Shown: positions 1,631 to 63,774 of the stretch, in pieces | Layout: every line of letters begins with the position of its first letter | Position numbering within the stretch: the first letter of the stretch is position 1 | Assembly: GCA_040902555.1 (NCBI GenBank) | Contig: JBBDXC010000013.1 | Location: forward strand, 211,832 to 275,831 | DNA length: 64,000 nt | DNA from: Dehalococcoidia bacterium | GTDB taxonomy: Bacteria; Chloroflexota; Dehalococcoidia; WHTO01 | Reading direction: 5' to 3' | Notes under the pieces: generated by a model | Database searches by the model: none | What the model was told of the DNA's origin: nothing | Seen by the model: only the letters and a program-made list of their open reading frames with translations | Program-made: the position numbers and the translations under genes

Positions 1631-2410
1631 TTAGCTGTCCTGCTCCTCTGTGGCCGAGGCGACGACCTCACCCCCGCTGCGGCTGGCCCTCTCCTTGTCA
1701 AGGAGAGGGAGAGAGGGAGTCGGGTCGTCAGCGCTGGGTGGGGTGGTTTGTGGAGGCACGTTTTCGGAGGCGTAGACGCCGCGATACTGCTCCGGAAGCA
1801 GCTCGGCGATCGCTCTCATGATAGCATCGGTGGCCTCTTCGAGAGTCTGCGCGGTCACCCTGGGCGGCCGCTCCAGGTAGAAGGGCTTGCCGTAGGTGAT
1901 GCTCAGCCGGGCGCGCGAAAACAGAGTCGCCTTCCAGCTCTTGAGCTCCTCGGTACCGGTGATTGCGGCAGGGACTATGGGGACGCCGGCGCGCAGGGCG
2001 ATGAAGGCGGTGCCCGGCCGGCCGTGCTGCAGCTTTCCCTCTTTGCTGCGCGTGCCCTCGGGAAACATGCCCAGGACCTCGCCATCCTTGAGCAGTTGGG
2101 TCGCCCGGCGGACCGCCGCCGTGTCCTTCTCCAGGCGCCTGATAGGAAAGACACCGTGCAGGCGCAGCAGCAGCCCGAAGCCGGGGAAGAACAGCTCCTC
2201 CTTGGCCATGAAGCGGATGCGCCGCTTGATCGACGTGCCAACGACCCCCGGATCGAAGTTGCTCAGGTGGTTGGCGACGACTATCGCGCCGCCGACGTCG
2301 GGCACGTTCTCCAGCCCCCGCACCTTCAGGCGGAAAAGCAGATAGCGCAGCGGCATGCCCAGGGTGAATTTCAGCACCGGGTGCATGAAGGGGACGAGGC
2401 GTTCGATCAT
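1631..2410 (-). CDS. plsC: 1-acyl-sn-glycerol-3-phosphate acyltransferase family protein
   Basis: HXXXXD acyltransferase motif (VANHLSNFD), FPEGTRS motif, PlsC-like length. Pro/Thr-rich C-terminal tail overlaps a repeat-element copy. Confidence 0.85.
   Translation of the reverse strand: MIERLVPFMHPVLKFTLGMPLRYLLFRLKVRGLENVPDVGGAIVVANHLSNFDPGVVGTSIKRRIRFMAKEELFFPGFGLLLRLHGVFPIRRLEKDTAAVRRATQLLKDGEVLGMFPEGTRSKEGKLQHGRPGTAFIALRAGVPIVPAAITGTEELKSWKATLFSRARLSITYGKPFYLERPPRVTAQTLEEATDAIMRAIAELLPEQYRGVYASENVPPQTTPPSADDPTPSLPLLDKERASRSGGEVVASATEEQDS
1687..1719. repeat. palindromic intergenic repeat family, degenerate copy embedded in the plsC 3' coding region
   Basis: ccctctccttgtcaaggagagggagagagggag matches the family core (CCCTCTCC-loop-GGAGAGGG + GAGAGGG). 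Encodes the PSLPLLDKER segment of the PlsC tail. Confidence 0.5.
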
Positions 2411-4080: not shown

Positions 4081-4107
4081 CCCCTCTCCCCGCGCGTGGG
4101 AGAGGGG
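4081..4107. repeat. palindromic intergenic repeat family, truncated copy (hairpin core only)
   Basis: cccctctccccgcgcgtgggagagggg between convergent gene ends. Confidence 0.55.
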
Positions 4108-4170
4108 ACCGGCTGGCCCTCCAGGGAAGAGGGAATCCTTTCCCTCGGAGGGCGAATTACAACGCCCGGG

Positions 4171-10764: not shown

Positions 10765-10803
10765 CCCCTCTCCCGGTCGGGAGAGGGTTAGGGGAGAGGT
10801 TTA
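10765..10803. repeat. palindromic intergenic repeat family, full copy
   Basis: cccctctcccggtcgggagagggttaggggagaggttta, 30 bp upstream of the MFS transporter start. Confidence 0.8.
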
Positions 10804-18987: not shown

Positions 18988-19026
18988 CCCCCTCTCCCGG
19001 CCGGGAGAGGGGTTAGGGGAGAGGCT
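18988..19026. repeat. palindromic intergenic repeat family, full copy
   Basis: cccctctcccggccgggagaggggttaggggagaggctt. Confidence 0.8.
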
Positions 19027-28657: not shown

Positions 28658-29260
28658 TCAGGCCGGCACGGGAACCTCGGCGTACGGCGGGGCCGGGTAG
28701 TACTCGATGTACTTCTGCACCAGCCGCGCCTTCTCTGGGCCCCACAGCCGGCCCACCAGGTGCAGTGCCATGTCGATGCCGGCTGAGACGCCGGCGGCGG
28801 TGATCACGTCGCCCTCGTCCACCCAGCGCTCCTCAACCACCTCGACCCCGTCCTTCTCGCCCAGGTGCGGCCGCATGCCCCACCACGTCGTCGCCTTCTT
28901 GCCCTTCAACAGCCCCGCCCGCTCCAGCACCAGGGCGCCGGTGCAGACTGACGTCGAGATCTCGGCGCTCTTGGCGACTTCGCCGATATAGGCCATGAAC
29001 GCGGGGTTGTCGACCTCGGTGCGCGTGCCCATGCCGCCCGGGACGATGAAGATATCGGGCTTCGGCGCGTCCGCGAAGCTGTAGTCCGCCAGCACGCGTA
29101 GCCCCTTCGCACAGGTAACCGTGCCGCCGTGTTCGGACACGGTGTAGCAACGGGCAGCGTCCTCGTCGACGTGCCGCATGCTGGTCAGGACCTCCCAGGG
29201 ACCGACGAAGTCGAGCTCCTCGGCGTCATTGAACAGGATGAAGGCGATGTTCTTAGTCAT
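28658..29260 (-). CDS. DJ-1/PfpI family protein
   Basis: Nucleophile-elbow Cys in VCTGALVLERAGLL and DJ-1 fold length (200 aa). Confidence 0.8.
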   Translation of the reverse strand: MTKNIAFILFNDAEELDFVGPWEVLTSMRHVDEDAARCYTVSEHGGTVTCAKGLRVLADYSFADAPKPDIFIVPGGMGTRTEVDNPAFMAYIGEVAKSAEISTSVCTGALVLERAGLLKGKKATTWWGMRPHLGEKDGVEVVEERWVDEGDVITAAGVSAGIDMALHLVGRLWGPEKARLVQKYIEYYPAPPYAEVPVPA

Positions 29261-29311
29261 GTGTCCAAGTCTATGCTGACGCCCGCCACCTCGCCTTCCG
29301 AAAGCGGTTAC

Positions 29312-29950
29312 TCAGTTCTCCGGGTAACCCGCCGCCCTCCGTTCGAGGATGCGTTGCGTCACTGAGCGGAAGACGTCGTAGGATTGCGCGCCAACCAGGG
29401 CAAAACGCTCGTCGAAGATGAACGTCGGCGTACCGCTGATACCGGCTGAGTGGGCCGTGTGTGTCGAAGCCCTCACACGCTCGCGGTACGCCCCAGAAGC
29501 GAGCGTCTCCGCCAGGCCCTCACCCAGTCCGCCCTCTCTTCCGATCCGCACGAGCAGATCCGGGTCGCCGATGTTCTCACCGTTCGTGAAATAGGCCTCG
29601 AACAGGCGATGGTGCAGGCGGTTGAACGGCTCGGGGCCGGCCTCGCGGGCGAACTCAGCGGCCTCAAGGGAAGGCAATGACCGCGCGATCAACTGCGGCG
29701 GCTTGATGATCAGCCCTTCCTTCTCGCCCTCCTCGCGGAGCATGCCCATGTAGTCGTCGCCACGGCGGCGGCCGCCAAACAGGCGCTCCGGCGTGATGCC
29801 CTCGGGCGGGATCTCCGGGTGGAGCTCGAATGGCTTCCAATCGATGTCGAGATCGAACTCCCGGGCGAGCCTCTCCACACGGGCGAGGCCTACATAGCAC
29901 CAGGGTCAGATGTAGTCGGAGTAGATGGTCACCGGCAGTGCATCGGTCAT
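29312..29950 (-). CDS. DsbA/FrnE-like thiol:disulfide oxidoreductase with in-frame TGA at the first active-site Cys codon (candidate selenoprotein; alternatively a pseudogene)
   Basis: Minus-strand translation from ATG at 29950 reads MTDALPVTIYSDYI-[TGA at 29908..29906]-PWCYVGLARVERLAREFDLDIDW... and continues in the same frame into the DsbA-like body. The stop sits exactly where the first Cys of the CPWC thioredoxin motif belongs. Confidence 0.6.
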
Positions 29951-30036
29951 GTCCGCAGCCTCCGACGCGGCGCCGCAGCCGTCAATCCCTACTGCACCGA
30001 GCAATAACTACCAAAACACGGTCTTCCCCCGCCAAA

Positions 30037-30095
30037 CCCTCTCCCTGGCAAGGAGAGGGCAGGGTGAGGTCGTGGGGCGGCGGGGTGTGGCGTCC
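30037..30095. repeat. palindromic intergenic repeat family, long variant
   Basis: ccctctccctggcaaggagagggcagggtgaggtcgtggggcggcggggtgtggcgtcc in a divergent promoter region. Confidence 0.75.
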
Positions 30096-31189: not shown

Positions 31190-31818
31190 CCGCCTCGTTG
31201 GGCGCTCGCAGAGCGTAGCGCCCGCAGCGCAGGCAAAGCCGCCTGCACAGCCCGCCCACGATGGCTGAGCTCATCCTTGACCGCCGAGGAGAGCTCAGCC
31301 ATCGTCATTTCCTGCCCGGCGGGCTGGAAGATGGGGTCATAGCCGAAACCACCGGCGCCACGCTCGCTGGCGACGATCACGCCCTTAACCTCGCCCCGAA
31401 ACACCTGTTCGTCGTCCGCTGCCGTGAGCACCAGCACGCAGACGAAGCACGCTGCGCGGTCCCGCTGACTCGCCAACTTCTCCAGCAGCCGCGCGCGATT
31501 CGCCGCGTCGCTCGCCCCGTCGCCGGCGAAGCGTGCCGACCTCAGGCCGGGCTCGCCGCCTAGTGCCGCCACCTCAATGCCGGAATCGTCGCCAAGGGCC
31601 GGGAGGCACGCCAGGCGCGAGGCTGCAATGGCCTTCAAGCGGGCGTTTTCCTCGTACGTTGCGCCGCTCTCGTCGACCTCGAAATTAAGGCCAAGGTCGC
31701 GGGGCGTGCGCACCGTCCAGCCCTCCGGGCCGAGCAGCCGCCGGAACTCCTCTGCCTTACCTCTGTTGTTCGTGGCCACTACGATCTCAGGCACAGCCCG
31801 GATGCTAACGCACCTCAC
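31186..31818 (-). CDS. rdgB: non-canonical purine NTP pyrophosphatase (RdgB/HAM1 family)
   Basis: IVVATNNRGKAEEF and FGYDPIFQP Ham1 motifs. GTG start placed at 31818; the longer ORF runs through a repeat element and is not protein-like. Confidence 0.8.
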   Translation of the reverse strand: MRCVSIRAVPEIVVATNNRGKAEEFRRLLGPEGWTVRTPRDLGLNFEVDESGATYEENARLKAIAASRLACLPALGDDSGIEVAALGGEPGLRSARFAGDGASDAANRARLLEKLASQRDRAACFVCVLVLTAADDEQVFRGEVKGVIVASERGAGGFGYDPIFQPAGQEMTMAELSSAVKDELSHRGRAVQAALPALRALRSASAQRGG

Positions 31819-31859
31819 CTCTCCCCCTGTCCCTCCTCTCCGTACACGGAGAGGAGGGA
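31811..31859. repeat. palindromic intergenic repeat family, copy in reverse orientation
   Basis: Reverse complement reads ccctcctctccgtgtacggagaggagggacagggggagaggtgaggtg. Between divergent rdgB and the dapA-family gene. Confidence 0.7.
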
Positions 31860-37915: not shown

Positions 37916-37976
37916 CCCCTCTCCTTGGCAAGGAGAGGGTTAGGGTGAGGTTGAGGGGCGGCGGGGAGGGGCGTCC
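37916..37976. repeat. palindromic intergenic repeat family, long variant
   Basis: cccctctccttggcaaggagagggttagggtgaggttgaggggcggcggggaggggcgtcc between convergent genes. Confidence 0.8.
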
Positions 37977-43541: not shown

Positions 43542-43586
43542 CCCCTCTCCCCTTGGCAAGGGGAGAGGGCTAGGGAGAGAGGTTTA
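43542..43586. repeat. palindromic intergenic repeat family, full copy
   Basis: cccctctccccttggcaaggggagagggctagggagagaggttta, 10 bp upstream of a TTG start. Confidence 0.8.
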
Positions 43587-46918: not shown

Positions 46919-46962
46919 CCCCTCTCCCCTTAGCAAGGGGAGAGGGCTAGGGAGAGAGGTCC
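46919..46962. repeat. palindromic intergenic repeat family, full copy
   Basis: cccctctccccttagcaaggggagagggctagggagagaggtcc, directly upstream of the ferredoxin TTG start. Confidence 0.8.
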
Positions 46963-47895: not shown

Positions 47896-48576
47896 TTGGT
47901 CCGCGCGGTCCTCTTCGACGTCGACGACACCCTCAGCGATTGGCCGGCGGCTGTCGAAAAGACCCTCGACGAAGTCCTGCCCCTGGTCCACGGAGTCGAG
48001 CCCATGACCATCCGCGCCCGCTTCTACGAGGTCCTCGACGAGCTCTACCTCGTCTGGCGCGATGGCCAGGTCATCGACCGCATCCACTGGATGCTCCTTG
48101 TCGACCCCGAGCGCTCCTGGAAGCTGACCCTGCCCGATGGGCCGGCAGAGCTCTGGATCCAGCTCGCCGAGGCCTTCCGCAAGGCGTTCCGGCCGGTAGC
48201 CTTCGCCGACGCCATTCCCACCCTTGAGGCGCTGAGGCCCAAGTATCAGCTCGCCGTCCTCAGCAACAACCACCTCGCCGAGAAGGTCGTGAGGCGGCTG
48301 GGCTTGGATGGCTACTTCAGCCGCGTGCTCTCGGCCGAGGACGGCTGCTACAAGCCGCATCCGCGGGCCTTCAGCCGCGCCTGCGACGTCCTCGGCCTCC
48401 CGCCCAACGAGATAGCCTACGTCGGCGACAGCATCGAGAACGACATCGAGGGCGCCCTCCCCGCCGGGTTGCTTCCCATCTGGTTAGACCGCTTCGGCTA
48501 CAACTACGAGATGCCGGCCGGCGTACACCGCATCACAACCCTGACGGAGCTCCCAACCCTGCTTCACTCGATTTAA
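47896..48576 (+). CDS. HAD-superfamily hydrolase (subfamily IA)
   Basis: Motif I VLFDVDDTL, motif II LSNN, motif III/IV region (YVGDSIENDIEGA). TTG start abutting the previous stop. Confidence 0.8.
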   Translation: MVRAVLFDVDDTLSDWPAAVEKTLDEVLPLVHGVEPMTIRARFYEVLDELYLVWRDGQVIDRIHWMLLVDPERSWKLTLPDGPAELWIQLAEAFRKAFRPVAFADAIPTLEALRPKYQLAVLSNNHLAEKVVRRLGLDGYFSRVLSAEDGCYKPHPRAFSRACDVLGLPPNEIAYVGDSIENDIEGALPAGLLPIWLDRFGYNYEMPAGVHRITTLTELPTLLHSI

Positions 48577-49271
48577 ACGGAGCCTTTCAGGTCTAGCCCA
48601 CACCCCCCAAAAACATGTAGTGGCGGGTGTCAGCCTCCCATCCAACCACGTCCTCTGAGTAGCTGCTGACACCCGCCCTTCCGAGCCTCCGTATGGGGTT
48701 ATGTACCGGCTCAAGGTTCAAAGCCGAGCCGCAATCCCCACGGCCATGGTTTCCGCGACAACTCCTGTCGGCATCCTGCCTACAAAGGAATAGAAACCCG
48801 GCGCGCGCACGGTCATGAGCCCTGCCGCCTCCTTTACAACTGCATACTCCTCGGTCCGAAACCCGATTCCCCACACCCTGGCCACGTTTTTATGTAGGGC
48901 GCAGGTGTCGTATTAGACAGACCCTCCGCCCACGAAGTCCTGAGACACCTGCCCGCTCCGCCGGCCGGCGCGAGAGCCTCCATGACGCGACAAAACCTCT
49001 GCCCACAGTCGTCCGGACGAGGCTCAAAACGAACCAAGTCGGCAAAAAACAAAAGCCAACCTTCCTTAAGGCGATTTAGCCACGCTTAAGCGCGATTAAC
49101 GGCAGATAAGACCGATTAGCGCCGATTAAGGCGATCCGGATCCGCCAACTAAGGCCAACTAAGGCGATTTAGTGGCGAATAGCGCTCTTTCGTAGAGCAG
49201 CTTCGCCAGGTCTTTTCGGTTGAACGAGAACTAACCACGACTAAGATGTAGCCACGATGGTTTCAGTGGGA

Positions 49272-49541
49272 ATGCGCGAACTCCGGTCTTCTCTAAGCCG
49301 CTACATTGCTCGGGTTCGCGAGGGCGAGACTCTGGTCGTTACGTTTCGAGGCGAGGAGGTTGCGCGAATTGTCCCCGCCAAGCCCCTTTCGAAGGAATGG
49401 CCAGCTTGGTATAGAGAAATGGTGGCCGAGGGGAAGATAATTCCTGCCCAAAACCCACGGGGCACCTTTTGGCCAACCCCGATTAAGATGTTGCCCGGAG
49501 ACAAAACCGCCGTCGACTACGTCCTCGAACAACGGCGCTGA
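49272..49541 (+). CDS. Phd/YefM-family antitoxin, orphan (no adjacent toxin gene)
   Basis: MRELRSSLSRYIARVREGETLVVTFRGEEVARIVP is the Phd/YefM N-terminal fold. The next gene 85 bp downstream is a CoA transferase. Confidence 0.65.
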   Translation: MRELRSSLSRYIARVREGETLVVTFRGEEVARIVPAKPLSKEWPAWYREMVAEGKIIPAQNPRGTFWPTPIKMLPGDKTAVDYVLEQRR

Positions 49542-59236: not shown

Positions 59237-59280
59237 TCCCCCCTCCCCTTGGCAAGGGGAGGGGGCAAGGGGGAGAGGTC
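59237..59280. repeat. palindromic intergenic repeat family, full copy
   Basis: cccccctccccttggcaaggggagggggcaagggggagaggtc. Its GGAGAGG tail sits 7 nt before the ATG at 59284. Confidence 0.8.
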
Positions 59281-60654: not shown

Positions 60655-60711
60655 TCCCTCTCTGTTTACGGAGAGGGGGGCAGGGGTGAGGTTGGGGCGG
60701 GGCGGGGTGGC
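60655..60711. repeat. palindromic intergenic repeat family, long variant
   Basis: ccctctctgtttacggagaggggggcaggggtgaggttggggcggggcggggtggcc, immediately after the thiN stop. Confidence 0.75.
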
Positions 60712-60830
60712 CAATCCGCGGCGTCGGAAGACTACCGCGGCAACACCCGCAAACGGGGGCAGGTGGGAATTCGAGGCAGTCGGCCACGACCATCCGCTAT
60801 CCTGCAACCGTAACAACTGAATACGGAGAT

Positions 60831-60926
60831 CCGCTGGGGGAGTCCACTCAAGGGTGGACTGAGAGGCTGCTCGTGAGGGCACGACCCCTGGAACCTGACC
60901 TTGCTGATACGAGCGTAGGGAAGCGG
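60831..60926 (+). promoter_or_regulatory. TPP (thiamine pyrophosphate) riboswitch aptamer
   Basis: Conserved THI-box elements in order: CUGAGA, ACCC, GAACCUGA, GCUGAUAC, GCGUAGGGA, with closing P1 helix CCGC...GCGG. Confidence 0.85.
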
Positions 60927-60944
60927 GCTTAAGGGACACCAGTA

Positions 60945-60981
60945 CCGAGAGTCGCATCAGCGGGCTCTCGGTCTTCTTTTT
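60945..60981 (+). terminator. intrinsic terminator (riboswitch expression platform)
   Basis: 7-bp GC-rich stem ccgagag/ctctcgg followed by tcttcttttt, directly after the TPP aptamer. Confidence 0.7.
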
Positions 60982-61020
60982 CCCCTCTCCCGGCCGGGAG
61001 AGGGGCCAGGGGGAGAGGTT
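60982..61020. repeat. palindromic intergenic repeat family, full copy
   Basis: cccctctcccggccgggagaggggccagggggagaggtt, between the riboswitch terminator and the thiB start. Confidence 0.8.
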
Positions 61021-61045: not shown

Positions 61046-62086
61046 ATGAAGCTCATTTGCGCCTTACTCGTCACGGCTCTTGTTTTCCTTGCCGCCTGCG
61101 GTGACGACGACCACAGCGGCGGCGGCACGCTGCGCCTGCTCACCCACGATTCCTTCGCGGTCGATGAGGACGTTATCACCGAGTTCGAGCAGGGGCACGA
61201 CATCTCGGTCGAAATCATCCGCGGCGGCGACGCCGGCGCCGTCGTCAACTCCGCCATCCTCAGCAAGGGCAACCCGGTCGCCGACGTCCTCTTCGGGGTC
61301 GACAACACCTTTTTGGGGCGCGCCCTCGACGAGGAGATCTTCGTCGCCTATGAATCGCCGGAGCTCGACAACGTGGATGACCGCTTTGAGTTTTCCGAGT
61401 TCGTGACACCCATCGACTACGGCTACGTCAACCTAAACTATGACATCGCTGCCCTGGAAGCTGAGGGCCTCGCGCCGCCGGCGACGCTCGAGGAATTAAC
61501 CGAGCCAGCCTGGGAGGGTCTGGTGGTGGTCGAGAACCCCGCCACATCATCGCCCGGCCTCGCCTTCCTCGCTGCCACCGTCGCCTACTTCGGTGAGGGC
61601 GACGACTACGACTACCTGGACTTCTGGGCCGACATGCGCGCCAACGGCGTCGAGGTCAGCGACAGTTGGACTGACGCGTACTACACCCGCTTCACCCTCT
61701 ATGGCGGCGAGCAGCCGGTCGTCGTCAGCTACACCACCAGCCCCGCCTGCGAGCTGATCTTCGCCGAGGAGCCCCTCGACGAGCCCCCCATCGGCAACAT
61801 CACGCCGCCGCAGGGCTCGTTCGAGCAGATCGAGTTCGCTGGAATACTCGCCGGTGCCGACAACGAGGACGCGGCGCGCGACTTCATCGACTTCATGCTG
61901 GGGGAGCGCTTCCAGGTGGCCTTCCCCGACGACATGTGCGTCTTCCCGGTACGCGACGGCGCCGCCCTCCCTGAGGCCTTCTCCTTCGCCGAGCCGCCGG
62001 CTGAGCCTGCCGACCTGGATTACGAGACACTAGCGGCAAAGCGCGACGATTGGATCGAGGCATGGACCGACGTGGTACTGCGCTGA
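61046..62086 (+). CDS. thiB: thiamine ABC transporter substrate-binding lipoprotein
   Basis: Lipoprotein signal (LVFLAACGDD), periplasmic-binding-protein fold. Downstream of the TPP riboswitch and followed by a two-domain permease. Confidence 0.8.
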   Translation: MKLICALLVTALVFLAACGDDDHSGGGTLRLLTHDSFAVDEDVITEFEQGHDISVEIIRGGDAGAVVNSAILSKGNPVADVLFGVDNTFLGRALDEEIFVAYESPELDNVDDRFEFSEFVTPIDYGYVNLNYDIAALEAEGLAPPATLEELTEPAWEGLVVVENPATSSPGLAFLAATVAYFGEGDDYDYLDFWADMRANGVEVSDSWTDAYYTRFTLYGGEQPVVVSYTTSPACELIFAEEPLDEPPIGNITPPQGSFEQIEFAGILAGADNEDAARDFIDFMLGERFQVAFPDDMCVFPVRDGAALPEAFSFAEPPAEPADLDYETLAAKRDDWIEAWTDVVLR

Positions 62087-63774
62087 CCAGCGCCGGACGA
62101 TCCGCGCGCTGGCCACGCCTTTTGCCCTACGGCTGGCTGGCCTTCGGCGGCGCCCTAACCTTCCTCGCAATCTTCTTCGCCTACCCTCTGGTCGAAATCC
62201 TCAGGCGCAGCCTTTTCGACGGCTGGTCCCCGGACCTCGGCGCGTTCTCCGAAGTCCTGGGCGACGACTATTTCCGGGGGCGCATCTTCTTCAGCTTTTG
62301 GCTGGCGCTGGTATCGACTGTCGCCACGGTGGCCCTGGGCTTGCCCTCGGCCTACGTCTTCGCCCACTACAGCTTCCCCGGGAAAACCCTCCTGAGGTCG
62401 GTCAGCACCGTGCCGTTCGTCATGCCGGCGATCGTCGTGGCCTTCGGCTTCATCGCCCTTTTCGGGCCGGACGGACTGGTCAACGACGGCTTACGGTGGC
62501 TGCTGGGGCGCGACGACGCGGCGCTGGACATGATCGGCACATTCGAGGTCATCGTCCTCGCGCACGTCTTTTACAACTACACGATCGTGATGCGCGTGGT
62601 CTCGGGTTTCTGGGCCTCGCTCGACCCCCGGCTGGCCGAGGCCTCGCACGTGCTGGGCGCCGGGCGCTGGCAGACGCTGAGACATGTGACGGTCCCGCTC
62701 GTAGCGCCCGCGGTGGCCGCTGCCGCGCTGCTGGTCTTCATCTTCTCGTTCACCTCCTTCGGCGTGGTATTGATTCTCGGCAGCCGCGACCACGCGACAC
62801 TGGAAGTTGAGATCTATCGTCAAACGGCCCAGATCTTCGATCTACGCGTCGCCGGCGCTCTGGCCATGATCCAGGTCGTCGTCACATTCGGCTTCATGCT
62901 CCTCTACACACGGCTGCAGGAGCGGTCAGCCGCACGGATCGACTTCCGTCAGCAGCTTCGCGAGCGCGCGCCTGGGAGCGTTCTGGCGCGTTGCGCTGTG
63001 GTCCTGAATGCCCTGGCGGTGCTGCTGGTCGTCCTCTCCCCGCTGCTCGCCCTGGTCCACAGCGCGCTGCGCGTCGACGGCCACTATTCGACGGCGGCCT
63101 TCGAGAACCTCTTCAGCGGAGAGTCCGCGACGCTGCGCCTCGTCGCACCGGAGACGGCTATCAGAAACTCGCTGGCCTTCGCGGGGCTGACCGTCCTACT
63201 GGCGGTTCCGCTCGGGACGGCAATCGCCTATCGGCTGGCGGCGCAGGCGCGCTATAGCTTTGTCCTCGACGCGGTGCTGATGTTGCCGCTGGCGGTGTCC
63301 GCGGTAACCCTCGGCTTCGGCTTCCTGATCGCCCTCGACGAGCCGCCGCTCGACCTGCGCGCCAGCTGGCTGCTGCTCGTCATCGCCCACAGCCTGATCG
63401 CCTACCCGTTCGTCGTGCGCAGTCTGTTGTCCGTGCTCCGTGGCATCAACCCGAGGCTGCGGGAGGCTGCCGCGGTCCTTGGCGCGGGCCGGCTGCGCAC
63501 CTTTACCGAGGTCGACCTGCCGATCATCTGGCGGGCCCTGGTGGTTGGGGCCGTCTTCGCCTTCGCCGTCTCGCTCGGCGAGTTTGGCGCGACATTGCTG
63601 CTGGCACGGCCCGAGTACACGACAATGCCGGTGGCGATCTTCCGCGCGCTCGGCCAACCCGGCCCGCGCGCCTTGAGCGAGGCGTTGGCCATGGCGTCGC
63701 TGTTGATGCTTGTGGCCGGCGCGGGCTTCATTCTGATCGAGCGGTTGCGTTACCGCGGCAGCAGCGGGTTCTAG
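62050..63774 (+). CDS. thiP: thiamine/iron(III)-type ABC transporter permease (two fused transmembrane domains)
   Basis: 574 aa with 12 TM helices and two EAA-like permease loops. Start may be the second ATG at 62062. Confidence 0.8.
   Translation: MDRGMDRRGTALTSAGRSARWPRLLPYGWLAFGGALTFLAIFFAYPLVEILRRSLFDGWSPDLGAFSEVLGDDYFRGRIFFSFWLALVSTVATVALGLPSAYVFAHYSFPGKTLLRSVSTVPFVMPAIVVAFGFIALFGPDGLVNDGLRWLLGRDDAALDMIGTFEVIVLAHVFYNYTIVMRVVSGFWASLDPRLAEASHVLGAGRWQTLRHVTVPLVAPAVAAAALLVFIFSFTSFGVVLILGSRDHATLEVEIYRQTAQIFDLRVAGALAMIQVVVTFGFMLLYTRLQERSAARIDFRQQLRERAPGSVLARCAVVLNALAVLLVVLSPLLALVHSALRVDGHYSTAAFENLFSGESATLRLVAPETAIRNSLAFAGLTVLLAVPLGTAIAYRLAAQARYSFVLDAVLMLPLAVSAVTLGFGFLIALDEPPLDLRASWLLLVIAHSLIAYPFVVRSLLSVLRGINPRLREAAAVLGAGRLRTFTEVDLPIIWRALVVGAVFAFAVSLGEFGATLLLARPEYTTMPVAIFRALGQPGPRALSEALAMASLLMLVAGAGFILIERLRYRGSSGF

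Follow-up and report, generated by a model that had tools for sequence, protein, structure and literature searches.

Dispersed repeats of the BoxC / PIT / triplex-motif kind in a Dehalococcoidia bacterium, and their position in front of genes

A 64,000-nucleotide stretch of the genome of a Dehalococcoidia bacterium (Chloroflexota; contig JBBDXC010000013.1, positions 211,832 to 275,831; hereafter the window) contains twelve copies of a short palindromic repeat, several of which end close to a start codon. This raises the question of what the repeat is, how it came to be dispersed, and whether it serves the genes in front of which it lies. G/C-rich repeats made of a hairpin plus a mirror block have been known in E. 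coli since the 1990s. Based on their sequence, the twelve repeats are of this kind, called BoxC, PIT or "triplex motif", here in a Chloroflexota host; after about 30 years we know of no agreed function or copying mechanism for such repeats. The explanation preferred here, at a probability of about 0.5, is a non-autonomous DNA repeat, defined by its structure, which would amplify within lineages, local use as a ribosome-binding site (RBS) being a by-product or an exaptation.

All twelve copies, numbered 1 to 12 by position, are present in the window and none arises in shuffled sequence, so the dispersed hairpin family of the original prediction is real. The core CCCTCTCC-N3-10-GGAGAGGG occurs seven times and its 9-nt version three times; neither arose in 100 dinucleotide-preserving shuffles of the window. 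A generic, sequence-agnostic finder was also applied, looking for an 8-nt pyrimidine arm, its complement 3-9 nt further on and a mirror purine block 1-6 nt beyond that, with at most one mismatch per arm and T permitted opposite A in the mirror block. It recovered 11 of the 12 copies, no other site in the window and none in 20 shuffles; copy 2 was missed because its third block is absent. The units are 38-60 nt long, and in blastn comparisons among the twelve spacers similarity ended at the unit borders. Identity was 97.7% over 43 nt for copies 8 and 9, 94.7% over 38 nt for copies 3 and 4, and 88% over 60 nt for copies 5 and 7. A MAFFT alignment of the copies was structurally inconsistent, the arm lengths differing. 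Short purine and pyrimidine tracts are common in high-GC DNA, and GGGGAGAGG alone was found at three unrelated sites, as would be expected of a chance or compositional artefact in a genome of 65% G+C; the composite motif, however, was absent from both sets of shuffles and copy pairs are 88-98% identical over 38-60 nt. The shuffles refute a chance origin, which keeps practically no probability.

By loop sequence the copies include two subfamilies, TTGGCAA and CGGCCG, and there is in addition a long type. The long type carries a 3' extension, GGGGCGGCGGGG, which occurs on copies 5 and 7 and as a variant on copy 11, and nowhere else in the window, as had been predicted. Eleven copies are intergenic, and the remaining one lies in the low-complexity tail of an open reading frame (ORF). 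A further 2.7 kb of the same organism (a Logan contig) contained no additional copy.

In order, a unit consists of a C-rich arm, a short loop, the complementary G-rich arm, 2-5 nt, and a G-rich block which mirrors the preceding arm. Judged by sequence, this layout is that of a class II (purine-motif) intrastrand triplex. The ITxF structural definition (a pyrimidine arm, a complementary purine arm and a mirror purine block giving G·G-C, A·A-T or T·A-T triads, with stems of at least 6-8 nt, no more than one mismatch and short loops, all on one strand) describes 11 of the 12 copies, copy 2 being without the third block. The "unit resembling the right arm" that had been reported to follow every hairpin is present in the same 11 copies, specifically as a mirror repeat, and copy 2 is a hairpin only. 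Nearest-neighbour folding, the model of which contains no Hoogsteen pairs, returned the pyrimidine-purine hairpin for every copy and left the third block unpaired.

Compensated arm changes were found in copies 6, 10 and 11. In 140 cross-phylum copies, among the matches listed, bases of the variable loop pair with one another beyond the fixed core (0.99 versus 0.31 extra pairs). Taken together, the self-complementary loops and the compensated changes indicate that the hairpin is maintained. A conserved RNA structure had also been proposed; its hairpin-forming part holds, but no Rfam family corresponds to the repeats, and at gathering score only a thiamine pyrophosphate (TPP) riboswitch passes in the window. 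The hairpin matches obtained in E-value mode are by chance and lie far under the gathering score of each family.

The arms of the window copies are nearly mirror-symmetric, so that mirror and direct repeat are not separable from the window alone. A metagenome scan was therefore considered in which the hairpin CTCCCCTTRGCAAGGGGAG alone was specified, yielding 133 hairpins among the matches listed. A mirror of the whole purine arm, with at most one mismatch, was located within 0-8 nt on one side in 88 of these 133, compared with 7.7 (maximum 16) when flanks were shuffled and with 38 of 133 under a direct-repeat criterion. The block tracks the arm: among these matches GGGGAGG goes with GG[T/A]GGGG, GGGGAGGG with GGG[T/A]GGGG, and GGGGAGAGG with GGTGAGGGG, and the mirror blocks frequently run on as TT opposite the loop-closing AA. 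Because a search for the hairpin alone recovers mirror blocks which track the arm, the mirror symmetry is read from these sequences as a maintained property of the family, corresponding to the geometric need of an antiparallel third strand, and not as a search artefact.

A full-text literature search with GGGAGAGGG leads to Holder et al. 2015 (PMC4666352), in which the E. coli element TMECO is given as CCCTCTCCC-TGT-GGGAGAGGG-CCG-GGGTGAGGG, or ending in TTA-GGGTGAGGG. The successive names of the element were BoxC, PIT (from the Maher laboratory; Hoyne/Maher 2000, as cited in PMC4666352) and TMECO. The isolated E. coli strand forms a stable triplex in vitro by circular dichroism and nuclear magnetic resonance (PMC4666352). 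The window copies share with BoxC/PIT/TMECO an identical order of three blocks, arms which are nearly CCCTCTCCC / GGGAGAGGG, a TTA second loop (in three window copies), and a multi-copy, intergenic occurrence with sharply variable copy number among relatives and no associated transposase. They differ in the third block, which in the window is GGGGAGAGG or GGGTGAGG followed by T or C, whereas TMECO has GGGTGAGGG; in their palindromic first loops (TTGGCAA, CGGCCG); in the long subfamily with its 3' extension; and in their host, since TMECO was reported from Proteobacteria. The strict TMECO consensus, 5'-CCCTCNCCC N3-6 GGGNGAGGG N3 GGGNGAGGG-3', matches none of the 12 window copies, and the same expression does match the E. 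coli control locus (L245), a Dehalococcoidia locus (L110), a WOR-3 locus (L039) and others; loci of relatives, of other phyla and of controls are labelled here L001, L027, L039 and so on. Because of this 0/12 result the window family is classified, by sequence, as a sister subfamily of TMECO. No paper after 2016 was found which resolves the function of these repeats.

The same E. coli sequences were described by Kaplan et al. 2016 (PMC5100583), viewed from the G-rich side, as the G-quadruplex-hairpin-duplex switches HPG1 and HPG2, the C-rich 5' flank and the hairpin potential being noted. A switch of this type regulating neighbouring genes would be favoured by the G-quadruplex which the E. coli G-rich half GGGAGAGGGTTAGGGTGAGGG forms in vitro (PMC5100583) and by the GGGG tracts which the long variants add. 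The canonical motif (four tracts of G3 or longer, loops of 1-7 nt), however, was found in copy 11 only, 1 of the 12. The third block ends in GG followed by T or C, so that the short type has three G3 tracts and, in contrast to HPG1/HPG2, no fourth. The C-rich arm and the mirror relation are also left unexplained, and such a switch is regarded as highly improbable in the window.

How widely the motif occurs was examined by scanning one genome per GTDB species with CCCTCTCC-N3-12-GGAGAGGG-N1-6-GGGNGAGGH, which returned at least 119 stretches; the genome and metagenome scans are samples and not censuses. Among the matches listed are Bacteroidota, Cyanobacteria, Chloroflexota, Acidobacteriota, Verrucomicrobiota, Planctomycetota, several proteobacterial classes, Nitrospirota, Patescibacteria, WOR-3, Bifidobacteriaceae and others, and by this sequence pattern the motif is present in most bacterial phyla. 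Among the same matches the flanks of the cross-phylum copies are unrelated, the unit standing out as a GC island in AT-rich genomes, and loop sequences are shared by 29% of copy pairs from the same genome against 1.2% of pairs from different genomes. Chromids and megaplasmids carry similar sequences, plasmid matches being mostly on large, non-mobilizable replicons; phages show essentially no association with the repeat. Two features considered as particular to the window were rejected: high density, since sampled loci bearing the triplex motif have a further copy every 6-11 kb compared with 5.8 kb here, and the TTRGCAA loop as a lineage-specific mark, since it is widespread among the matches listed. 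Inverted pairs of units 100-150 bp apart were observed in several phyla (L027, 4294-4476; L044, 6448-6624; L070, 561-684), and in the Acidobacteriota loci L027 and L044 they share outer flanks such as ttcgaagcgca. From their sequence such pairs look like a larger composite element, REPIN-like or MITE-like, built on the unit.

The original prediction stated that the copies are mostly docked upstream of start codons. Six of the 11 intergenic window copies have their tail no more than 30 nt upstream of a start in the same sense, where 1.9 were expected when position and orientation were randomised within each copy's own spacer (P of about 0.001; 0.004 when the limit is set at 40 nt). In tandem gene contexts of the window, with copy 1 re-oriented as described below, six copies are sense and one is antisense. 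Elsewhere, among the matches listed, the genome sample had 23 copies in each orientation in tandem contexts and the metagenome sample 19 sense against 12 antisense (42 sense and 35 antisense in the two together), and tails within 30 nt upstream of a sense start numbered 5 against 4.6 expected (genomes) and 5 against 4.5 (metagenomes). The docking thus holds as an enrichment in the window but not family-wide. In E. coli the copies are intergenic, show no preferred orientation or distance to genes and have unusually variable surroundings (PMC4666352); the clustering of the window copies upstream of starts in sense orientation is a difference from E. coli BoxC, one that concerns reported behaviour and lies outside the structural definition.

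It could be asked whether the repeat is primarily a cis-acting RNA element of 5' leaders, the hairpin stabilising the mRNA or shaping the RBS and the exposed G-rich tail acting as a Shine-Dalgarno (SD) sequence, a standby site or a STAB-SD-like landing pad. In STAB-SD and standby sites, too, a purine tract resembling an SD lies beside a stable hairpin, upstream of the true start; they are gene-specific leader features and not a dispersed repeat, and the likeness is confined to the start-proximal window copies. The start proximity and the six-to-one sense excess in the window would fit such a role, as would the GAGAGG found 5 nt before both a ferredoxin start and an MBL-fold hydrolase start. 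The neutral orientation and start proximity across phyla, on the other hand, argue against a general role at the RNA level. Copies 2, 4 and 7 are antisense or face gene ends, and thiB has its own SD beyond copy 12. The mirror relation of the third block has no rationale in RNA, purine-motif triplexes not forming in RNA according to Holder et al. (PMC4666352), and besides the lack of an Rfam match, promoter and terminator activity were absent from the E. coli copies in published tests (PMC4666352). A primary leader function is accordingly considered unlikely.

For single genes, donation of an RBS had been proposed, with the reservation that the ferredoxin copy lay too close to its start to serve as one. 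Copy 9 (46919..46962, plus strand) does end 2 nt before the ferredoxin TTG (46965), but its GAGAGG core (46954-46959) stops 5 nt short of it, which is normal SD spacing, and it can act as an RBS. The spacer between the DUF455 gene and the ferredoxin gene measures 106 nt in the window and 1-27 nt in relatives; in the nearest relatives (L248 and L251, 73-74% identity) the ferredoxin start follows the DUF455 stop by 1-8 nt, with an SD-like purine run (GAGGAG or AGAGGAA) at the DUF455 end. The window DUF455 gene ends in ccccgaaaaatga, without this purine run, and within the 106-nt spacer nothing but the repeat tail resembles an SD. RBS donation by copy 9 to the ferredoxin gene is credible from these comparisons. 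Copy 10 (59237..59280, plus) has arms CCCCCCTCCCC / GGGGAGGGGG, with a compensated T-A to C-G change, and its GAGAGG stands 5 nt before the MBL-fold hydrolase ATG (59284), the same spacing as for ferredoxin, but here the upstream context is not conserved in relatives; from spacing alone, copy 10 perhaps donates an RBS to this gene.

The thiB gene retains its own SD downstream of copy 12. The TPP riboswitch (60826-60938) is bracketed by two copies, as had been reported. Copy 11 (60655..60711, plus), of the long type and degenerate (CCCTCTCTG / CGGAGAGGG), begins 4 nt past the stop of the TPK gene and ends 114 nt upstream of the riboswitch. Copy 12 (60982..61020, plus), of the short type, follows the T-run of the terminator hairpin of the riboswitch and precedes the SD of thiB (GGGAGA), the thiB ATG (61046) being 25 nt downstream. 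The hairpin and T-run at 60945-60981 are conserved in relatives (L001, 5665-5697; L122, 75-112), and the riboswitch for this reason probably acts through transcription termination, copy 12 lying downstream of the terminator. A scan for promoter and terminator consensus sequences found nothing overlapping copies 8-12, which leaves the promoter function of the original prediction without a promoter-like consensus over these copies.

Comparison with related genomes, which had been suggested as a check, showed that copy 12 is missing between the terminator T-run and the thiB SD in five relatives that keep the MBL-TPK-riboswitch-thiBPQ order or at least the riboswitch-thiB junction. Across nine related loci a triplex motif was present at one place only, in L249. 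This locus, from a related Dehalococcoidia metagenome-assembled genome, carries at about 1890-1950 a "double" unit, in which the single hairpin CCCCTCCCCC / GGGGGAGGGG has a mirror block on each strand; an amidohydrolase gene starts about 33 nt downstream of the unit.

A new family of REP (repetitive extragenic palindromic) or MITE (miniature inverted-repeat transposable element) type had been proposed, with the remark that identity to a catalogued family would make it ordinary. The match to the described BoxC / PIT / triplex-motif repeats is that outcome, and terminal inverted repeats, target-site duplications and shared flanks were not found. With MITEs, which sometimes donate regulatory signals, the window repeats have in common that they are small, non-autonomous, intergenic and polymorphic for presence or absence; they differ in their 38-60 nt unit and in lacking terminal inverted repeats that match a transposase-bearing parent and target-site duplications. 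With REP, BIME and REPIN elements they share short, imperfect, extragenic and highly repeated palindromes, occurring singly or as inverted pairs, with lineage-specific subfamilies. An element of REP/REPIN type moved by a RAYT, or by an IS200/IS605-like Y1 transposase acting on single-stranded DNA hairpins, would suit the size of about 40 nt, the imperfect palindrome, the intergenic location, the single or inverted-pair arrangement in many genomes and the excess of plus-strand copies in the window (10 to 2). Set against this, neither a conserved flank nor a GTAG-like 5' tetranucleotide, the signature of REPs, was found beside the palindrome, no RAYT was seen in the window, and no Y1 transposase was among the approximately 50 window ORFs scanned against Pfam. 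The plus-strand excess is largely accounted for by the orientation of the downstream genes. Window units add a mirror purine block, absent from REPs, and homopurine/homopyrimidine arms, and their sequence is common to many phyla whereas REPs are species-specific. Movement by such an enzyme is thus very unlikely.

A replication-linked strand bias was also considered for the 10:2 excess and was dropped, since the excess mostly follows downstream gene orientation once copy 1 is re-oriented. Around 20-30 kb the GC3 skew and the gene orientation both shift, in opposing directions, and no origin genes were found. At about 20000-30000 the genes turn from mostly minus to mostly plus, with no replication genes nearby, and the difference in GC3 skew between plus- and minus-strand genes flips sign, opposite to the expectation for an origin.

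The mirror covariation also bears on a further explanation, namely that the host selects a DNA structure: a transient triplex or hairpin in single-stranded DNA which pauses forks, seeds recombination or repair, or binds a nucleoid or repair protein. The covariation implies selection on a triplex-compatible fold, the E. coli element has been reported to block polymerase in vitro and lies in hypervariable neighbourhoods (PMC4666352), and chromosomes and chromids carry the element while phages hardly do. At the E. coli tauD-hemB locus about one in three of 5,426 genomes has an unrelated 37 bp in place of the cassette with the repeat. Hypervariability, however, would be expected just as much of a repeat that is mobile or decaying; no in vivo triplex signal has been published and no binding protein is known; and the absence of the repeat from five to eight related loci, compared with 12 copies here, is better explained by a dispensable element. 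Host selection of this kind is possible but unlikely. At least three alleles were seen in the tauD-hemB spacer (L245 / L246 / L247): the BoxC cassette, a 37-bp terminator-like hairpin, and an extra 51 bp beside the unit.

Under the preferred explanation, that of a structure-defined repeat amplifying within lineages, the strand would fold as a hairpin with the trailing block lying along the purine arm as an antiparallel third strand. The unit would multiply within lineages and settle in intergenic spacers as a small non-autonomous element, the copying probably acting on folded single-stranded DNA, and the family would have no general role in gene expression. In this genome the persisting copies would be concentrated just upstream of start codons in sense orientation, where the G-rich tail (GAGAGGT) could substitute for a Shine-Dalgarno sequence. 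The docking would then not account for the existence of the family; it would be a by-product or, at the ferredoxin gene and perhaps also at the MBL gene, an exaptation.

Several observations weigh against this explanation. The copying mechanism is an inference, because no transposase (Y1 included) was detected among the Pfam-scanned window ORFs, and inspection of the spacers by eye and by blastn revealed no terminal inverted repeats or target-site duplication. Holder et al. (PMC4666352) detected no triplex, either in duplex DNA or in vivo by dimethyl sulfate footprinting, and they interpret the variability of the E. coli element as instability and not as mobility. The E. coli tauD-hemB copy lies within an allelic cassette of about 105 bp and is not a clean unit-sized indel. 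Sharing across phyla could reflect convergence on a few G-rich mirror-symmetric 9-mers. The census comprises 64 kb of the genome plus the 2.7 kb mentioned above, and the start-proximity figures come from 11 copies, heuristic start calls and a post hoc threshold. A bolder form of the explanation, in which a pan-bacterial, self-propagating single-stranded DNA element is recognised by its hairpin-plus-third-strand fold and has been domesticated here as a portable leader module, appears decidedly unlikely. Recognition of the fold would explain the covariation of mirror block and arm in unrelated phyla, and a module consisting of a stable hairpin and an exposed SD-like tract could rewire translation initiation on landing between genes, for example between DUF455 and ferredoxin.

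The remaining copies are as follows. Copy 1 (1665..1709) had been placed correctly in the 3' end of a plsC-like ORF but read on the plus strand; it is better read on the minus strand, facing ispH, with the hairpin CCCTCTCC-TTGACAA-GGAGAGGG at 1687-1709 followed after 11 nt by the third block GGGGGTGAGGT (1675-1665), so that the strand tally is 10 plus and 2 minus and not 11 and 1. It lies in the C-terminal low-complexity tail of the ORF, and the ispH ATG (1630) is 34 nt downstream. The tail of this acyltransferase ORF (1631-1760) is 40 residues long and spans copy 1, stopping 1 nt short of the ispH ATG; possibly the repeat has lengthened or reshaped this end of the ORF. A contig from an independent short-read assembly of the same organism (Logan SRR27977660; L252, 1-30) ends inside the hairpin of copy 1.

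Copy 2 (4081..4107, plus) is the hairpin CCCCTCTCCC-CGCGCGT-GGGAGAGGGG without a mirror block, with convergent genes on either side. An unrelated GC-rich hairpin, CCCTCCAGGGAAGAGGGAATCCTTTCCCTCGGAGGG, lies directly 3' of it at 4116-4153, and the joint fold has -29.7 kcal/mol (z = -5.1); according to this folding model the two may be a bidirectional terminator region without T-runs. Copy 3 (10765..10803, plus) is of the short type, with loop GGTC, second loop TTA and third block GGGGAGAGG; it lies in a divergent spacer, the ATG of an MFS gene (10833) being 29 nt past the tail. Copy 4 (18988..19026, plus), also short, has loop GGCC and second loop TTA. A "secreted protein" start beside it was not supported: the true flanking genes are both on the minus strand, the copy is antisense to both, and it lies 68 nt beyond the stop of a NosD-like gene.

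Copy 5 (30037..30095, plus) is of the long type, with third block GGGTGAGG and 3' extension TCGTGGGGCGGCGGGGTGTGGCGTCC, in a divergent spacer. In copy 6 (31811..31859, minus) a compensated CCT/AGG insertion lengthens both arms. This inverted copy had been assigned to a dapA-family gene; its tail faces the Ham1 start (GTG at 31794, minus) 16 nt away, and 20 nt separate its 5' end from the start of the DHDPS-family gene (31880, plus), both starts having been placed by Pfam domain positions and a codon-score gene caller. Copy 7 (37916..37976, plus) is long, with loop TTGGCAA, second loop TTA, GGGTGAGGTT and extension GAGGGGCGGCGGGGAGGGGCGTCC, and has convergent genes around it. Copy 8 (43542..43586, plus) is short, with 10-nt arms, loop TTGGCAA and third block GGGAGAGAGGTT; 10 nt beyond its tail lies the TTG start of an alpha/beta hydrolase whose N-terminus is lipoprotein-like.

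New in this work are a clear Chloroflexota instance of the BoxC / PIT / triplex-motif repeats; pattern-independent evidence, from many phyla, of a third block which varies with the hairpin arm as its mirror repeat; and the DUF455-ferredoxin locus, where a repeat-carrying insertion parts genes which are 1-8 nt apart in the nearest relatives. If the docking at starts holds genome-wide, the organism would be suited to testing tolerance against reuse of repeats as translation signals. For annotation it matters that the units break assemblies and can extend ORFs, as in the plsC-like tail.

Some features of the window apart from the repeats were also recorded. ARAGORN called a 92-nt tRNA-Ala(GGC) at 63451-63542 within a thiP-like permease ORF (62050-63774); over-long and inside coding sequence, the call is probably a false positive. 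G+C drops to 52-58% over about 680 nt at 48576-49257, where neither an ORF supported by Pfam nor an Rfam match was found, and downstream of this stretch a sigma-70-like consensus (49412-49441) lies inside a Phd/YefM antitoxin ORF (49257-49541). This antitoxin is one of several scattered toxin-antitoxin components, the others being a MazE-like antitoxin (24600-24827) and a PIN-domain protein (26965-27378).

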